Part shown: in pieces, positions 39,833 through 48,778 of the stretch
How the letters are laid out: each line of letters opens with the position of its first letter
Numbering within the stretch: position 1 is the stretch's first letter
Source: Dehalococcoidia bacterium
GTDB lineage: Bacteria; Chloroflexota; Dehalococcoidia; Lucifugimonadales; UBA3495
Assembly (NCBI GenBank): GCA_963667675.1
Contig: OY763929.1
Span: 814,358-878,357, forward strand
Direction: 5' to 3'
Length of the DNA stretch: 64,000 nucleotides
Position numbers and translations under genes: made by a program
Notes under the pieces: model-generated
Database searches by the model: none
What the model was told of the DNA's origin: nothing
What the model saw: the letters and a program-made list of their open reading frames with translations, nothing else

Positions 39833-40420
39833 CTACTTTCTCCTGGCGGCCCGAGGCGACCTGGCCTTTTCCACCTGCTCCATCACAAAGTGGGCGACGT
39901 CGCGGTACAACGGCTCGTCCAGGTTGCAACCCTGCAGCAAGTTGACCTCCGGATGCAAGTCGTCCATTAGCTGCTTGACCCGGGACTCTCCATGACGGCC
40001 GGCCAGGACGAAAGCTATGCCCCGATGGTCGCGGGCGTTGGCATCGTCTTGCTCTTCGGCCGTTTCCAATTCCTGCTCATACTCCACCCTGTCCGCAACC
40101 GACAGCGCCTGGGCAGCTTCTTTGTGGAGATTCTCGATTTGGCGCAGGGTGGTGTACAGTTCGTTGATGGCCCTGGCCGCGGATCCCAACAGTTCGGGCA
40201 CTCGGGCCTGCTTGTCATTGGCCGTCCCAACGCACTGCCTGGCCTGGTCCATGTGGGACATCCTGACCCGTTCCTGCTCGGCGGACTTGTCCTTCTTGGC
40301 CTTTTCGGTGCGCAGGCTAGGGGCTTCGGAAGCCAGGGGTTGCAGCCGGGACACCTCGGTCTCGGCCTGTTCAGCGACCCGCAACCTTTCTTCCAGGGTT
40401 TCAGCGTATACACTCGGCAT
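39833..40420 (-). CDS. hypothetical coiled-coil protein
   Basis: ATG 40420 preceded by GGAGGAG. 195 aa, charged and helical. No family recognised. Confidence 0.45.
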   Translation of the reverse strand: MPSVYAETLEERLRVAEQAETEVSRLQPLASEAPSLRTEKAKKDKSAEQERVRMSHMDQARQCVGTANDKQARVPELLGSAARAINELYTTLRQIENLHKEAAQALSVADRVEYEQELETAEEQDDANARDHRGIAFVLAGRHGESRVKQLMDDLHPEVNLLQGCNLDEPLYRDVAHFVMEQVEKARSPRAARRK

Positions 40421-40661
40421 AGTCATCTCCTCCACCGATCTCTGGGTACACCCCCCTCCGGCGGTCAGCCGGGTCCTCTACGGAGTGCACGCGATATGGG
40501 ATTATCGGCGGGCGGGCAGGTTACGCGCCTGTCCGCCTGTCGATCCACTGGGAATATACCGCAACGTCCGGCAGGCTGCATACGTGTTGCCGCTACCAGT
40601 TTTGGTCAATTTTTGCACAAGGCGGGAGTTTTGGCCTATTCTGGAAGCAAGGAATTGACCG

Positions 40662-41789: not shown

Positions 41790-41884
41790 GCCCTTCGAGA
41801 GCCTCATGGTGAACGGGTGGGGGGCGCTGATGATCCTTGACGCCGGCTGTCCGTTCGCCCTGAGGGAAATTGAAGGGCGAACGG
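41788..41884. repeat. hairpin repeats (families B and A)
   Basis: ggcccttcgagagcctcatggtgaacgggtgggg, then ccgttcgccctgagggaaattgaagggcgaacgg (11-bp perfect stem). Confidence 0.55.
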
Positions 41885-41929: not shown

Positions 41930-42241
41930 CTACCGCTGAAAAATAGTCCGGCGCAGCAATTCGTTTAGCCGGGTCTGCCAGCCGGGGCCGGTGGACCGGA
42001 GATGGGCTGTTATGTCCGCGTCCAGCCTCAGTGTTATTCGCTCTTTGACCGGAGCCTTCTGTTTGCCGCGCCTCCGTAGTGAATACTCGACCAACTCAGG
42101 ATGTACCTCCGCGGCGGGCCGGGCGCGGGCGAACCAATCGTCGTCCAACTCCGGCGCGTCGGGGTCCAGGGCGATGCCCCTGTTGATCTCCAACTCTTCC
42201 TCAGGAGTTGGGCTGATGTGAGTGGGCTTAAGCTTGGGCAT
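41930..42241 (-). CDS. brnA: BrnA-family antitoxin
   Basis: KERITLRLDADITAHLRSTGPGWQTRLNELLRR is the BrnA C-terminal pattern. ATG 42241 overlaps the toxin end by 14 nt. Confidence 0.75.
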   Translation of the reverse strand: MPKLKPTHISPTPEEELEINRGIALDPDAPELDDDWFARARPAAEVHPELVEYSLRRRGKQKAPVKERITLRLDADITAHLRSTGPGWQTRLNELLRRTIFQR

Positions 42242-42491
42242 ATTGCCTAATCTCCCTGGAATTGGCCTTGCGCAGGCTGATAATGCGGCACTTGCCGCCC
42301 CGCATGGTATAGACCACGTAGTGCAGCCGGTCGCCGATGTATCCCAAGGCAACATAGCGGGCTTCTCCGCGCCGGGGACTTGGCGAGATGGCGGCGGTCT
42401 GCCACTCGAATATCTCCATGTCCAAGAAGTCGACGCCGTTATGCTTCGCTAGGTTGTCTTGGCGCTTGGCCTCATCCCATTCGTACTCGAT
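42228..42491 (-). CDS. brnT: BrnT-family toxin homologue with no canonical start codon in front of its conserved N-terminus
   Basis: The open frame back to the stop at 42513-42515 encodes YCLYNKGIEYEWDEAKRQDNLAKHNGVDF...RIISLRKANSREIRQY. The YEWDEAK..N..KHGV motif lies upstream of the first ATG/GTG/TTG (TTG 42425). The 5-prime end is set at the ATC codon (42491) and is uncertain. Confidence 0.55.
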   Translation of the reverse strand: MEYEWDEAKRQDNLAKHNGVDFLDMEIFEWQTAAISPSPRRGEARYVALGYIGDRLHYVVYTMRGGKCRIISLRKANSREIRQYAQA

Positions 42492-44118: not shown

Positions 44119-44383
44119 GTCATTCCCGCGGAGGCGGGAATCTCGCGCCCTGCCCCCATCCGTTCGCCCTGAGGGAAATCGAAGGGCCTCCAACAGTCCA
44201 CTGTAGGGGTAGGCCTTGTGCCTACCCTAGCCCCGGCTGTAGAGGGTGCCTACCAGGGACGCCCCACCCGTCATCCTCGCGCAGGCGAGAATCTAAGACC
44301 CTTGGCGGCAGCCCGTCTTGAGCAAGCAATCCCCAACCGTTCTCAGTCCCTCATCCGCTCATGGTGAGCTTGTCGAACCATGG
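44119..44383. repeat. cluster of hairpin repeats (families C, A, D, C, B)
   Basis: agtcattcccgcggaggcgggaatctcg; ccgttcgccctgagggaaatcgaagggc; ctgtaggggtaggccttgtgcctaccctag; ccgtcatcctcgcgcaggcgagaatctaag; cgctcatggtgagcttgtcgaaccatgg. Confidence 0.6.
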
Positions 44384-44575
44384 AAAGGGTATTTTCAAAC
44401 GCGCACCCTCGTGGAAGACCCGCCGCATCCCGCCCGTCATACGTCAGAATGCCCTCGAACCCAAGCGCAGTCCTATAAATCGCCATGACATATATGCGAT
44501 ACTCTACCCGGTGCTCAAGTCCCACACCCCTGCGCCCTCCACCATCTACGCCAGTCATGTATCGAACCGAGGAAA

Positions 44576-45880
44576 ATGAAGCCAAAGGCTAAGCAGGACT
44601 ACTTGGTCGTGCAGAAGGGGGCCAAGCCGGCGAAGCGAGACGGCTGGCGCGAGGTGCCATTCAGTGAAGCAGTGCAAATCAACCCTGCGGTACAACTTGA
44701 ACGTGGCGCGGTTTACCCCTTCGTAGATATGGCAGCGGTGACTCCCGATTCAAGAAGCACTAGCTCTACTGGGGAGCGAGGCTTCAAGGGCAGCGGCTCC
44801 AGGTTCCAAAGCGGCGACACGCTCATGGCTCGCATTACTCCATGCTTGGAGAACGGGAAAATCGCCCGCTATCAGGCCATGGGAGACAAACAGAAGGCTC
44901 ACGGCTCAACTGAGTTCATAGTCATTCGTGGCCGTTCAGGCGTTACGGATAACGACTTCGCCTACTATCTAACTCAGTGGGAAGAAGTCCGCAACTACGC
45001 TATCGGCCAAATGACAGGCACTTCGGGGCGCCAAAGGGTCCCTGTGGATTGCCTAGACCATTTGGAAATCCCCCTCCCACCCCTCCCCGAACAGCAGGCC
45101 ATCGCCCACATCCTCGGCACGCTGGACGACAAAATAGAGCTAAACCGCCGCATGAACCAGACCCTTGAGGAAATGGCCCGCGCCATCTTCAAGTCCTGGT
45201 TCGTAGACTTTGACCCCGTCCGCGCCAAAATGGAAGGCCGCGACGCCGGCCTGCCGCCCGACCTCGCCGCCCTCTTCCCCGACCGCCTAGTGGACTCGGA
45301 GCTTGGGCAAATCCCGGAGGGGTGGGCAGTGAAACCGTTGGGGGAAGTGATAGAGATTCACGATAATAAGCGCATTCCCTTGAACAATCGTCAGCGCGCA
45401 GAGCGGCAGGGTGCTTATCCTTACTATGGCGCCGCTGGCATCATGGATTACGTTGATGACTATCTCTTTGATGGTGTCTACGTGCTGGTCGGAGAAGATG
45501 GCTCAGTTGTTAATGACGAGGGTTATCCAGTAGTGCAATATGTCTGGGGGCAGTTTTGGGTCAACAACCATGCTCATGTACTTCGCGCTAAGCATGGTGT
45601 TGGCCTAGAGCAACTCTATTTGTTCCTCAAACAAACCAACATCGTGCCTTATGTGACAGGAGCAGTTCAACCAAAGCTCAGTCAGACGAATCTTTGCTCC
45701 GTTCCCTTTTCGCTTCCAAGTCAAGCTGTTAGTTTAGCCTTTGCAGATATAGCGGGCTCACTATTTCAACAAATACGCCGCATAGCCGATGAATCGCACA
45801 CTTTGGCCGCGCAGCGGGATACGCTACTGCCGAGGTTGGTGAGCGGGGAAATATTCTTACCGTGCCTAAGAGGGGATTAA
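44576..45880 (+). CDS. hsdS: Type I restriction-modification specificity subunit
   Basis: Two target-recognition domains separated by the conserved LPPLPEQQAIAHILGTLDDKIELNRRMNQTLEEMARAIFKSWFVDF region, with a C-terminal conserved region (LAAQRDTLLPRLVSGE). Confidence 0.85.
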   Translation: MKPKAKQDYLVVQKGAKPAKRDGWREVPFSEAVQINPAVQLERGAVYPFVDMAAVTPDSRSTSSTGERGFKGSGSRFQSGDTLMARITPCLENGKIARYQAMGDKQKAHGSTEFIVIRGRSGVTDNDFAYYLTQWEEVRNYAIGQMTGTSGRQRVPVDCLDHLEIPLPPLPEQQAIAHILGTLDDKIELNRRMNQTLEEMARAIFKSWFVDFDPVRAKMEGRDAGLPPDLAALFPDRLVDSELGQIPEGWAVKPLGEVIEIHDNKRIPLNNRQRAERQGAYPYYGAAGIMDYVDDYLFDGVYVLVGEDGSVVNDEGYPVVQYVWGQFWVNNHAHVLRAKHGVGLEQLYLFLKQTNIVPYVTGAVQPKLSQTNLCSVPFSLPSQAVSLAFADIAGSLFQQIRRIADESHTLAAQRDTLLPRLVSGEIFLPCLRGD

Positions 45881-47838
45881 TGCTTACCGACACGCTTACA
45901 AGTCTTGCAATCCTGAAGGTGAACATTGATCAAGGTAAAGATTATCTTGACTACCTCCGGCCTTTCATTCTTCAGGTCCTTGTAGAAGAGAAACCAGACG
46001 AAATCTCAGATACCGTCATTAGCAACCTGATAAGAGCGCGATTTGGATTGGAAATCCCGGACGGCACTGTTCATATAGTCTTGAGACGCTTATCTAGGGC
46101 ATATCCAATCAAGAGAGAACGCGGTGTATATCGTATAACAGGCCACATACCTGACCCTGGTATATCAGCCAAGCAAGTGGAAGCAAAGCGCCATGTTGAC
46201 GCAGTTGTAAATGGGCTGATGGAATTCTCATCTGGCTCGTTGAAGCCCTTCTCTGACAGAGACCGTACTGAAGCATCGATACGCACGTTTCTGGCTAATT
46301 TCAATGTATCGTGTTTGCGTGCCTACCGGAGGGGAACAGCAATTCCAGACCTCACCGACCAACAAGATACCGATATCGTACTGGTCAGTAAGTACGCCAT
46401 ACATCTCCAGAAAACCAATCCAGAGAGGTTTGACAGTTTTATGATCATGGTGCAAGGGCACATGCTCGCTAATGCCCTGCTTTGCCCTGACCTAAGTCAT
46501 GTGTCCGACCACTATAAGCAAGTAGCATTTTATTTAGATACGCCATTGCTTGTGCAACTCCTCGGTCTTGAAGGTAATGCCAAGCAAGATGCTGTTACAC
46601 AGCTACTTCGCTTGTTAAAGAACCTGGATGGTAAGGTACAAGCATTTTCTCATTCTCGCGATGAGTTGAGAGGGGTAATCCAAGCCGCCGCGATGAACTT
46701 GGAAATCCCTGATGGGAAAAGCCCCGTAGTCATAGAAGCGCGAAGGTCAGGGACTACAAAGTCCGACCTGCTTCTAGTTACAGAGCAAGTAGATAACCAC
46801 CTTAACAAGGCTGGCATAGAGATAACTACCACTCCTAGATATACTGAGTCTTACCAGATAGACGAACAAACATTCGAAGATATCCTCGCTGACGAGGTTT
46901 CCTACTCCAATCCTCGCGCTATGCTGAATGACATTAACTCTGTCCGAAGCATCTACGTTCTACGGAAGAACCTATCACCACCTTCACTAGAGAAATCCCG
47001 AGCTGTTCTGGTTACGAGCAACACCGGGTTCGCTGATGCGGCATGGAGGTATGAGCAGCAATTCCAGAACAATAGAGGCCCTAGAGAGGTATCAACCGTT
47101 ATAGGCGATCTCACCTTAGCTAACTTAGCGTGGCTAAAGGCGCCATTGGGAGCTACAACTCTCCCCAGCAGCGAAATAATTGCCTTGGCATACGCTGCTC
47201 TTGAACCTTCAAGGACGTTGCTAGACAAATATTTGGCAGAAATTGACCGACTGGAGCAACAAGGTGATATCTCCCCAAGAGACCATCAATTGCTCCGAAG
47301 TAGTCCAATGGCGTATGACGAGTTGGTTGCCCTAACTCTAGGCGACGAGACAACTTTGACCGAGGAAACGGTTAAAGAGACTCTGGACCGGATTTCTAGA
47401 GAGATCAAGGAAGAGGAAAGTGGAATGCTGGTCGCAGAGCAGAGTGCGCATCGGATAACCCAAGAGAAACTGAAAGAATCGCTTCAATTCAACAGAGACG
47501 TCCGGGAGCGGATTTACTGGCAATGCCACAGGAGGGCCGCGTTGTGGGCTAATGTAGCCGCTGTTCTAATTGGGGTCCTATTGATTGGCGATTTAGTAGC
47601 TGGCTTCATGGTATGGATATTTAATGGAACGTATATTGCGCTAGCTGTTGCTTCTCCCATTGCAATCGTCGCTGGGATATTGACACTGGTAAGCCGATGG
47701 TTTGGGATTTCGGTTATGGAGTTCCGTAGACGTGTACGAGAGTGGCTCTTTGATAGATTTCGTAAGCAGCAATCAAACACCACTGGCATTGAACTGAGGG
47801 GCGATACAGCGATACAGAATGAACAAATCAGAGAATGA
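45880..47838 (+). CDS. uncharacterised 652-aa protein with C-terminal transmembrane hairpin, coupled to hsdS
   Basis: ATG 45880 overlaps the hsdS stop (TAATG). AT-rich. Long uninterrupted ORF with protein-like composition. Two hydrophobic helices near the C-terminus. No family recognised by eye. Confidence 0.7.
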   Translation: MLTDTLTSLAILKVNIDQGKDYLDYLRPFILQVLVEEKPDEISDTVISNLIRARFGLEIPDGTVHIVLRRLSRAYPIKRERGVYRITGHIPDPGISAKQVEAKRHVDAVVNGLMEFSSGSLKPFSDRDRTEASIRTFLANFNVSCLRAYRRGTAIPDLTDQQDTDIVLVSKYAIHLQKTNPERFDSFMIMVQGHMLANALLCPDLSHVSDHYKQVAFYLDTPLLVQLLGLEGNAKQDAVTQLLRLLKNLDGKVQAFSHSRDELRGVIQAAAMNLEIPDGKSPVVIEARRSGTTKSDLLLVTEQVDNHLNKAGIEITTTPRYTESYQIDEQTFEDILADEVSYSNPRAMLNDINSVRSIYVLRKNLSPPSLEKSRAVLVTSNTGFADAAWRYEQQFQNNRGPREVSTVIGDLTLANLAWLKAPLGATTLPSSEIIALAYAALEPSRTLLDKYLAEIDRLEQQGDISPRDHQLLRSSPMAYDELVALTLGDETTLTEETVKETLDRISREIKEEESGMLVAEQSAHRITQEKLKESLQFNRDVRERIYWQCHRRAALWANVAAVLIGVLLIGDLVAGFMVWIFNGTYIALAVASPIAIVAGILTLVSRWFGISVMEFRRRVREWLFDRFRKQQSNTTGIELRGDTAIQNEQIRE

Positions 47839-47841
47839 CGC

Positions 47842-47920
47842 ATGACTGCCCTCACTGAAGCGGACGTTGAGCATGCAACCCTAGGTTGGCAGGTGGCGCG
47901 GCTGGTATATCGCGCCGGGC
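47842..47920 (+). pseudogene. possible 5-prime remnant of Type I restriction subunit hsdR
   Basis: An ATG 3 nt after the preceding stop encodes MTALTEADVEHATLGW, resembling the common HsdR N-terminal pattern (TE..VE.AAL.WL..LGY). From 47921 the frame runs into hairpin repeats and stops at 48016-48018. The evidence is only ~15 residues. Confidence 0.3.
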
Positions 47921-48200
47921 GTAGGGGCGGTTCGCGAACCGCCCCTGCACCGGAATCATGCAGGATCCTTGATGTGTCACCAATTGGACCGCCGCCACAA
48001 CCCGGCCATCCATCATAATTGCCCAACCCGTAGGGGCAACCCTTGTGGTTGCCCTCGCCTCGGTCAGGGCGCCCACAAGGGGCGCCCCTACGTTGGGCGC
48101 TGCCCCATGGCCTGATACCAGGAAGCGGCCAACCCTGCCACACCCCCGTTCGCCCTGAGGGAAATCGAAGGGCTTGTCGAATCACTCGAACGGACGAACC
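47921..48200. repeat. cluster of hairpin repeats (families D, D, D, A, B-like)
   Basis: gtaggggcggttcgcgaaccgcccctgcac; cgtaggggcaacccttgtggttgccctcgcc; cagggcgcccacaaggggcgcccctacg; ccgttcgccctgagggaaatcgaagggc; cttgtcgaatcactcgaacgg. Confidence 0.6.
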
Positions 48201-48463: not shown

Positions 48464-48778
48464 ATGAACCTCAGCTCTCTACAGTCACGTGTCCGCGCCC
48501 TGCGCCGCAAAATGGCCAAACCCTATGCCCAGCTTATGATTCAGCGCATGACCGACGAAGTCTGCGACCAGTGGGCTGTCGCCAATGCCTTCAAGCGCAC
48601 CCTCCCCTCTCCCTGGGAATTCGTGCGCAAGGTCGCCAAGGCAGGCTTCCGGCTCCCCACCTTCACCGGTGCGGTGCTCTACCTCGAAGGCTGCAACGGG
48701 AATCGAAAACAGCCCTATCCGGACTACCTCCTGCGCCTCCTCCTCCCCTGGGCCGCCTACAGCTACGCCGTGGACTGA
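48464..48778 (+). CDS. hypothetical protein
   Basis: 104-aa ORF. ATG preceded by AGGAGGA at good spacing. No family recognised. Confidence 0.5.
   Translation: MNLSSLQSRVRALRRKMAKPYAQLMIQRMTDEVCDQWAVANAFKRTLPSPWEFVRKVAKAGFRLPTFTGAVLYLEGCNGNRKQPYPDYLLRLLLPWAAYSYAVD

Follow-up and report, generated by a model that had tools for sequence, protein, structure and literature searches.

A decayed Type I restriction operon in a Dehalococcoidia bacterium retains a gene of an undescribed family, a candidate antiviral accessory function

In a 64,000-nucleotide stretch of contig OY763929.1 from a Dehalococcoidia bacterium (the window), an intact gene for the specificity subunit of a Type I restriction–modification (R-M) system, hsdS, is followed by an intact 652-residue open reading frame (ORF), which we designate X, and by a short remnant of hsdR. 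The locus is very probably a decayed Type I operon that has kept an R-M-embedded accessory gene. It corresponds to the middle of the canonical hsdM-hsdS-X-hsdR operon of related loci; hsdM and everything upstream of hsdS are gone. The locus is composed of the following parts, with coordinates given as positions in the window.

44576–45880, + strand: hsdS, Type I specificity subunit, intact, 434 residues, with two target-recognition domains (ORF map, Pfam and PADLOC).
45878–45882, + strand: TAATG, in which the hsdS stop codon TAA (45878–45880) shares an A with the X start codon ATG (45880–45882) (sequence; a junction type kept in the family).
45880–47838, + strand: X, intact 652-residue ORF of an undescribed family (ORF map, homologues and alignment).
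47842–47898, + strand: remnant of the hsdR 5' end, about 19 codons, with an internal deletion of 6 codons compared with relatives (synteny and DNA alignment).
47912–48100, no strand assigned: GC-rich hairpin repeats, similar to repetitive extragenic palindromes (REP) or miniature inverted-repeat transposable elements (MITE), in place of the hsdR body (inverted repeats I1, I8 and I9).

The hsdS product is matched twice by Pfam Methylase_S (E = 5.8e-30), and the PADLOC Specificity_I models span nearly its full length (E = 1e-108; residues 24–428 in one model), which bears out the full-length HsdS with two target-recognition domains described in an original prediction made from the sequence alone. 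The 5' half of hsdS (to ~45345) shares 71% DNA identity with hsdS of a related locus (L004), and its 3' half (from ~45347) has a low guanine-plus-cytosine (GC) content and resembles X in this respect. The ATG at 45880, with GAGGGG immediately 5' of it, is favoured as the X start over the in-frame GTG at 45862 because the alignment with homologues starts at the first residue of the ATG form. The overlap of this ATG with the hsdS stop, as originally read from the sequence, suggests that translation of X may be coupled to that of hsdS. X is also AT-richer than its surroundings, as had been stated (GC of 0.474 compared with 0.613 for the whole window and 0.656 for dnaJ), and it retains all residues that are invariant in an alignment of the diverse family.

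Three nucleotides past the X stop, the ATG at 47842 opens a frame that begins MTALTEADVEHATLGWQVA; at the same syntenic position, HsdR of the relatives begins MTTLTEADVEQAALDWLAALGWQVAHGP. The DNA of this stub can be aligned to that of relatives for about 50–60 nt and is divergent beyond, and the ORF runs past the remnant as non-homologous sequence to 48018. The original prediction had taken the stub for an HsdR N-terminus. The resemblance stands at the exact syntenic position, and it is this position that gives the match its weight, whereas the whole-window search returned tblastn E = 0.04 and a non-significant score for the HsdR hidden Markov model (HMM). The frame dissolves into hairpins as described, with inverted repeats at 47918–47951 and 48029–48092. 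Neither hsdM nor hsdR was found in the window by tblastn with three seeds each or with HMMs built from 26 HsdM and 24 HsdR sequences (best E > 0.5), in agreement with the claim that no hsdM and no intact hsdR occur there. That is to say, among the components of a functional Type I R-M system, the window has an HsdS with two target-recognition domains, no HsdM and only about 19 codons of HsdR. DNA homology of the window to related operons is confined to 44561–47777 and begins 15 nt 5' of hsdS. The flanking genes are housekeeping genes, namely amt (ammonium transporter) upstream and dnaJ and the PrmA gene downstream. No Rfam family or tRNA was found near the locus.

The nearest homologues of X reside between hsdS and hsdR of complete Type I operons. 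Exact-protein look-ups with Pfam-annotated neighbourhoods for 8 relatives yielded 5 complete hsdM...hsdS-X-hsdR operons, 2 solitary copies amid housekeeping genes, and 1 decayed operon (L094). Neighbourhood statistics were derived from 82 non-redundant related loci (each given an L number) from about a dozen phyla, with neighbours clustered and Type I genes counted within 10 kb. Only three partners recur beside X, namely HsdS (35 loci, immediately upstream at a median distance of -12.5 nt), HsdR (31 loci, downstream), and HsdM (30 loci), and the next commonest neighbour cluster is present at only 6 loci; the enrichment of homologues beside Type I genes, which the original prediction had proposed to check, is thus found. 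An HMM re-scan detected Type I genes near X at 41 of the 82 loci, and the Type I content of the loci is distributed as follows (M, S and R denote hsdM, hsdS and hsdR).

M, S and R: 27 of 82 loci.
M and S: 5 of 82 loci.
S and R: 4 of 82 loci.
S only: 2 of 82 loci.
M only: 1 of 82 loci.
M and R: 1 of 82 loci.
R only: 1 of 82 loci.
None: 41 of 82 loci, 33 of which have at least 5 kb of sequence on each side of X.

The hsdS–X junction is the tightest of the operon: the two genes overlap or are separated by no more than 10 nt, mostly as TAATG or TGATG, in 21 of the 32 loci with an upstream hsdS on the same strand. A random gene is estimated to lie directly 3' of hsdS about once per few thousand genes, and the association of X with hsdS is therefore far above chance. 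Synteny, the 41 loci with Type I genes and the conserved junction together uphold the proposal that X is an R-M-embedded accessory gene, kept with hsdS after the loss of hsdM and hsdR.

Two other readings of the S–X pair bear on this point. According to the first, which the original prediction had offered as an alternative, HsdS and X form a two-gene module in which HsdS provides X with DNA-sequence recognition in the absence of HsdM and HsdR. Both genes are intact in the window and joined by a stop-to-start overlap, their junction is the tightest in the operon, and S plus X without R is also seen at L008 and L011. The two-gene module nevertheless fared badly and is in our view very improbable: X lacks hsdS at about half of the loci, including the 33 well-flanked ones; the full set of M, S and R accompanies X at 27 loci, with S the sole Type I gene at only 2; and the few cases with S and X only resemble decayed operons (L008, L094), the hsdS kept with X at L008 being a 282-residue fragment and the upstream sequence of L011 ending at the contig edge. 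To our knowledge, HsdS acts only within the M2S1 core, and we know of no HsdM-free function; the Ronin system (described below) likewise requires HsdM. According to the second reading, the locus is not fully orphaned, and hsdS, perhaps with X, serves hsdM and hsdR encoded elsewhere in the genome. The hsdS gene is full length and free of frameshifts, and genomes with multiple Type I systems and extra hsdS genes are common. Nothing within the window speaks for such use in trans, and the hsdM-proximal promoter region has been lost, given where DNA homology begins; we regard this reading as improbable, though less so than the two-gene module.

X is also found with other restriction systems and alone. 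Hma systems hold X between HmaA or HmaC and HmaB (L045:5962-15844 and L046:4612-14904), and at L027:464-8866 and L043 it has a Type III Mod methylase on one side and a UvrD/NERD-like helicase on the other, with an AbiP2-type reverse transcriptase adjoining. Other solo copies are located beside a KAP nucleoside triphosphatase (PDC-S20), or have an ImmA-like protease and DUF4411 downstream of X. In a rough neighbour-joining tree, embedded and solo copies are interleaved, which points to repeated gain and loss of the R-M context. No antitoxin-like partner recurs beside X among the 82 loci. An independent decayed operon, L094:6207-11496, carries Fic, a Polbeta nucleotidyltransferase (NTase) and a 150-residue ORF overlapping the X start, and, downstream of X, DUF6978, DUF1828/1829 and a 109-residue HSDR_N fragment, with housekeeping genes all around; here too, accessory genes outlived the R-M genes.

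A word-indexed search returned 1,140 relatives of X, nearly all of 636–652 residues and named "hypothetical protein" or unnamed, and an exhaustive HMMER scan of 50%-identity cluster representatives returned 3,220 clusters at E ≤ 1e-3, with 1,142 at E ≤ 1e-30. X-bearing GTDB species representatives belong to Chloroflexota (Dehalococcoidia), Gamma- and Alphaproteobacteria, Nitrospirota, Planctomycetota, Acidobacteriota, Gemmatimonadota, Bdellovibrionales, Verrucomicrobiota, Spirochaetia, Deinococcota and others. Few of them are isolates (Pseudomonas, Methylovulum, Microbulbifer), the family being mostly in uncultured lineages, and this bias may explain why surveys of RefSeq isolates overlooked it. 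Distant homologues, with 24–28% identity over residues 1–480 by tblastn, are encoded on plasmids of Enterococcus faecium, Klebsiella, Pantoea, Arthrobacter and others, where they are solitary, flanked by insertion sequences (IS) and annotated as hypothetical.

In line with the earlier statement that X belongs to no recognised family, it had no match above noise in Pfam, NCBIfam, PADLOC-DB v2.0.0, PHROGs or PDB sequences, and the Pfam scan revealed no transposase or integrase domain. The sub-threshold matches were treated as compositional: (i) LeoBC (E = 0.007), the sole PADLOC match, over the coiled-coil and transmembrane region; (ii) NCBIfam EccE, SecDF and a lipid transporter in the PDB, and tape-measure proteins in PHROGs, mainly over the same region; and (iii) Pfam Peptidase_M17_N over residues 444–522. 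A phage origin of X was rejected: nothing similar to X turned up among 50,697 phage records, in PHROGs or in BFVD. The comparison with the candidates of the "guilt-by-embedding" study, whose supplementary tables give family IDs only, was made by way of the PADLOC scan. The PADLOC library includes the PDC models, and genes near X in related loci match PDC-S20 and PDC-M69B; because the same library gave no match to X, X is not among the PDC candidates of that study. The PDC and HEC candidate models were all negative, which agrees with the original view that no described system matches X. Accessory, probably defensive genes nested in restriction operons are already a known kind; the X family and its architecture are undescribed in the libraries and literature searched.

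An AlphaFold2 model of the whole of X, built from a 50-sequence alignment (mean predicted local distance difference test score, pLDDT, of 80), divides the protein into the following predicted parts.

45880–46149, + strand: X residues 1–90, predicted winged helix-turn-helix, the most sequence-conserved N-terminal segment (AlphaFold2, Foldseek and conservation).
46162–46500, + strand: X residues 95–207, all-helical linker domain with a conserved GHMLANAL motif and the invariant N198 (AlphaFold2 and alignment).
46501–47154, + strand: X residues 208–425, predicted PIN-like α/β domain with helical insertions (domain model, Foldseek, invariant residues and sub-threshold Pfam PIN matches).
47167–47544, + strand: X residues 430–555, helical bundle followed by a long single helix (coiled-coil-like stalk) to the membrane (AlphaFold2).
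47545–47700, + strand: X residues ~556–607, two hydrophobic helices forming a predicted transmembrane hairpin with a short loop (hydropathy and AlphaFold2).

The winged helix has partial Foldseek matches to SSV1 F-93 and MarR. Behind the central domain, the model has helices at residues 430–490 and one helix of ~85 residues (495–580), which leads into the hydrophobic helices. Hydrophobic 19-mer peaks at residues 559–577 and 586–604 set the transmembrane segments at about 556–580 and 585–607. Both segments are flanked by Arg/Lys-rich stretches, and because both flanks are positively charged, both ends of the hairpin are predicted to be cytoplasmic (in–in); the membrane anchor originally proposed for X is thus also predicted here. 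At least two C-terminal hydrophobic segments are present in 36 of 46 diverse homologues and at least one in all 46. The position of the hairpin is conserved though its sequence is not, and the transmembrane segments are the least conserved part of X.

Modelled alone, the central domain (pLDDT 90.9; predicted TM-score 0.89) has five parallel strands, and the predicted structure shows the three-layer α/β/α fold with a parallel five-stranded sheet that is characteristic of PIN domains. Its top five Foldseek matches in the PDB are all PIN domains (HARP 7og5, PAE2754 1v8o, Mycobacterium tuberculosis VapC 7vwo and PAE0151 2fe1), with a probability of 1.00 and TM-scores of 0.57–0.60 normalised to the target. 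Residues N198, D220, H258, E262, D351, R362, E371, T379, N381 and N415 are invariant among homologues down to ~30% identity, and D296 and E329 are nearly invariant in the family. As in the PIN nucleases, an Asp-Thr pair (D220-T221) stands right after β1, where PIN motif 1 is placed, and a conserved Glu (E262) is part of the helix that succeeds β2; β4 is followed by T379-S-N381 in place of the T-x-D that is usual for PIN domains. The metal site of PIN nucleases is built from three to four conserved acidic residues, placed behind β1, in the helix behind β2, behind β3 and behind β4. The E. faecium plasmid homologue matches Pfam PIN_3 at the equivalent position with E = 5.6e-4, under the gathering score. 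Taken together, the predicted fold suggests that the central domain of X is probably PIN-like. The X domain differs from known PIN nucleases in that (i) it comprises ~220 residues with long helical insertions, compared with about 130–160 residues; (ii) it lies below every Pfam PIN threshold and has Asn in place of the fourth acidic residue; and (iii) it shares its polypeptide with a winged helix and a membrane anchor, and no antitoxin gene accompanies it. PIN-like toxins beside Type I hsdM/hsdS genes have been noted earlier (PMC5499597). A comparison of the central-domain profile with PDB sequences gave chance matches only, such as histone H4. The top whole-protein Foldseek matches, S-adenosylmethionine-dependent O-methyltransferases, were rejected (TM-score ~0.1; root-mean-square deviation, RMSD, of 15–19 Å); they reflect the winged helix and the Rossmann-like domain, and the high-probability entries in the same list are PIN domains.

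We somewhat favour the reading that the locus is a remnant Type I operon retaining a self-contained accessory gene, probably for a latent, membrane-tethered abortive-infection nuclease. The preferred niche of the X family is the hsdS–hsdR gap, the position of prrC in the EcoprrI locus, and the family also persists solo. The embedding and the predicted fold lend support to the original suggestion that X is a plausible defence effector, and they suggest a putative nuclease activity; that the function of X is nuclease-based abortive defence is a tentative reading, held at slightly less than even confidence. In intact operons, X would be expressed together with Type I, Hma or Type III genes as a second line of defence, in Type I operons via translational coupling to hsdS. 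Tethered to the inner membrane, it would stay inactive under the control of its N-terminal sensor region, of the R-M complex, or of the two together. Upon infection, the PIN-like nuclease would cleave nucleic acid and arrest the cell, and RNA would be the likelier substrate by analogy with VapC and HARP. The copy in the window is probably a surviving relic, which may still act alone, as the many solo members of the family suggest.

Several observations weigh against this reading. On the structural side, (i) the Foldseek matches to PIN domains have E-values of ~1e-2 and an RMSD of ~6 Å, with large insertions in the domain; (ii) the position of the fourth catalytic acid of PIN domains, after β4, is occupied in X by an invariant Asn, N381; (iii) Pfam PIN, PIN_3 and PIN_12 match single members of the family with sub-threshold E-values of 0.065–0.09; and (iv) hhalign of X against a VapC alignment gave a probability of 0.2%, with nothing aligned beyond a "DT" dipeptide. 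On the side of the locus, about half of the X loci lie outside any R-M context, and some copies are situated amid plain housekeeping genes (ribonucleotide reductase, GlnRS and MutS; also UvrA and a molybdoenzyme). No sigma-70-like promoter was seen on the + strand upstream of hsdS, although this is a weak test, and expression of the relic is uncertain for this reason. The low GC of the second target-recognition domain of hsdS and of X (45347–47838) could have been a mark of recent import, but this idea is weakened by the low GC of the whole family: X lies ~11 GC points below hsdM and hsdR on average in all 13 complete operons examined (L002, L004, L018, L023, L025, L032, L033, L036, L038, L049, L050, L055 and L069), whatever the GC of the host. 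The dip in GC seen here thus reflects a trait of the family and is no sign of recent acquisition in the window; frequent transfer, or selection for AT-richness or silencing, may lie behind the trait.

The Asn at the fourth catalytic position and the failed VapC profile comparison also favour a different effector, in which the transmembrane hairpin is the killing element: X would oligomerise via its long helix and depolarise or permeabilise the inner membrane in the manner of RonA and of the transmembrane effectors of CBASS (cyclic-oligonucleotide-based antiphage signalling systems) and type III CRISPR, with the winged helix and the PIN-like domain acting as sensors of nucleic acid or protein. 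The hairpin is kept in position, if not in sequence, in the family, the ~85-residue helix feeds into it, and Ronin offers a precedent for a transmembrane toxin linked to HsdMS. By contrast, the invariance of D220, H258, E262, D351 and E371 to ~30% identity is what would be expected of a working active site, the transmembrane segments are the least conserved part of X, and the tblastn matches on plasmids reach residues 1–480 only; we therefore hold the hairpin effector to be unlikely.

The favoured latent nuclease resembles PrrC and RloC in several respects. The EcoprrI locus has the gene order prrA-prrB-prrC-prrD, and PrrC and RloC are soluble proteins that combine an N-domain like that of ATP-binding cassette ATPases with a C-terminal anticodon-nuclease domain; activation in this class comes from inhibition of the partner R-M enzyme or from DNA damage. 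Within its Type IC locus, PrrC stays latent as an RNase until the R-M enzyme is inhibited, and X fits the idea of a latent suicide RNase as a backup to restriction (PMC12707154). X occupies the same slot as PrrC, inside a Type I operon between hsdS and hsdR; like PrrC and RloC, it is a single large polypeptide with a predicted nuclease module; and like RloC, it is both R-M-linked and solo. Embedding next to hsdS in a Type I operon, as for PrrC and RloC, is seen across the X family, and the window keeps a remnant of it only. By contrast, X has no sequence relationship to either protein (no PADLOC, Pfam or NCBIfam match) and is predicted to consist of a winged helix, a PIN-like fold and a transmembrane hairpin.

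Ronin consists of HsdS, HsdM and a 61-residue transmembrane toxin, RonA, without HsdR; it confers decoy immunity, and the toxin is held in check by HsdMS (10.1101/2023.04.06.535777). The locus in the window is likewise derived from a Type I system, lacks the restriction subunit and has a tightly linked membrane protein as the presumed effector. However, Ronin requires HsdM with HsdS, and the window has no hsdM; RonA has 61 residues and one transmembrane helix, whereas X has 652 residues and three cytoplasmic domains. The window thus holds neither the hsdM–hsdS pair nor the ~61-residue single-helix toxin of Ronin. Because relatives of X normally reside in complete operons with hsdR, the hsdR-less state here reflects decay and not design.

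Other uncharacterised genes have been reported from inside Type I, Hma, BREX or DISARM systems (10.1101/2024.01.29.577857; PMC12255303). X, nested in Type I and Hma systems, follows the same logic as these HEC and PDC genes, and its insertion site is also that of DarTG2, between hsdS and hsdR; it differs in matching none of the PADLOC-DB v2.0.0 models.

The duplicated hsdR 5' ends of related loci bear on how such genes enter the operon. At L024, L034, L036, L038, L049, L060 and L072, hsdR 5' fragments of 34–158 codons lie directly 3' of X and are followed by cassettes and then by a full hsdR. This arrangement suggests that the conserved 5' end of hsdR is a recombination handle for the insertion of cassettes into Type I operons, in agreement with published remarks on the hsdS–hsdR gap as a hotspot for embedded defences (PMC12255303; 10.1101/2024.01.29.577857).

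The same stubs, as signs of repeated cassette insertion at the hsdS–hsdR site, can also be cited for the view that X is not a defence effector at all but an accessory or regulatory protein, such as a membrane tether or a winged-helix regulator, or a selfish addiction gene hitch-hiking in the hotspot. The N-terminal winged helix, the tight coupling to hsdS, the low GC of X in every host and its persistence after R-M decay in the window and at L094, like that of an addictive gene, fit this view. A regulator or tether of Type I enzymes would, however, not be expected intact at 33 well-flanked loci without Type I genes, nor on IS-flanked plasmid segments, and X has no recurrent antitoxin-like partner and no transposase or integrase domain. 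The solitary copies make the regulatory, tethering and addiction roles less consistent with the data, and we consider a non-effector role rather improbable.

A more specific form of the nuclease reading is that X acts as a "restriction guardian", an antitoxin-less membrane PIN-like nuclease that would monitor methyltransferase-based restriction complexes (Type I, Hma and Type III). Arrest would follow from the inhibition of these complexes by phage, or from the sensing of phage DNA or protein where it enters at the membrane. A guardian able to act alone after the decay of its partners would explain how intact X has outlived hsdM and hsdR in several lineages. Both the guardian role and its proposed triggers are speculative, and we put little weight on them.

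For a new accessory function in antiviral defence, the X family is a good candidate. Time and again, genes that lie inside restriction operons have turned out to be antiviral, as with PrrC, DarTG2, Ronin and the HEC systems. The X family comprises 3,220 clusters at 50% identity, and its embedding pattern is among the most consistent, yet it is absent from Pfam, NCBIfam, PADLOC and PHROGs. Among characterised defence proteins, we found none that combines a winged helix with a PIN-like domain on a membrane stalk and lacks an antitoxin partner. If X is a defence effector, it adds a widespread single-gene system and a tractable model for accessory effectors that are wired to restriction enzymes and outlive them. 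The related loci also add to the record of the conserved hsdR 5' end serving as a recombination handle when cassettes are inserted. The copy in the window is a relic; its value lies in flagging a large, well-conserved and experimentally tractable candidate family.

Other genes are embedded alongside X in related loci. A cassette of DUF6978 and DUF1828/DUF1829 recurs between X and hsdR (L036:7458-8725, L049:9958-11168 and L094:9963-11170), and a SLFN_AlbA_2/HATPase_c_4 ATPase is located between hsdM and hsdS in 6 loci. NTase_sub_bind and Polbeta nucleotidyltransferase genes also lie between hsdM and hsdS (L002:8346-10001, L093:6343-8001 and L091:5681-6437), and HsdS of L002 and L093 (551–552 residues) carries the Polbeta domain as an N-terminal fusion. 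Further co-embedded genes encode GmrSD_N, a YhcG/DUF1016 nuclease, DUF6602 and DUF6650. GmrSD_N, the YhcG nuclease, the SLFN/AlbA_2 ATPase, the NTase pairs and the DUF6978 and DUF1828/1829 cassette are typical defence cargo. X itself is split or interrupted in L047, L053, L062 and L079, the interruption in L062 being an IS with an rve-type transposase.

Outside the remnant operon, a dispersed 28-nt intergenic repeat, CCGTTCGCCCTGAGGGAAATCGAAGGGC, has three copies in the window, two of them identical.

44160–44187, + strand: 28-nt repeat, copy upstream of hsdS, identical to the copy at 48146–48173.
48146–48173, + strand: 28-nt repeat, copy downstream of the hsdR remnant, identical to the copy at 44160–44187.
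41851–41878: 28-nt repeat, third copy.

GC-rich palindromes of the GTAGGGGC...GCCCCTAC type occupy the intergenic regions on either side of the remnant and are also present at 44200–44260. No Rfam family matches the dispersed repeats or the palindromes; they look like REP- or MITE-type elements of the source genome. An interpretation of the repeats at 44160 and 48146 as att-like island borders was rejected in view of the third copy at 41851 and of the differing order of the neighbouring repeat modules. The dispersed repeats may have mediated the deletions of hsdM and hsdR. Two ORFs near the locus have no Pfam family, one of 104 residues (48464–48778, + strand), between the hairpin repeats and dnaJ, and one of 200 residues (39833–40435, - strand). 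Two genes 5' of the hsdS–X remnant, past the ammonium transporter, lies a BrnT/BrnA type II toxin–antitoxin pair encoded by overlapping ORFs (41930–42425, - strand), with the BrnT toxin called at 65 residues and the BrnA antitoxin at 141 residues.

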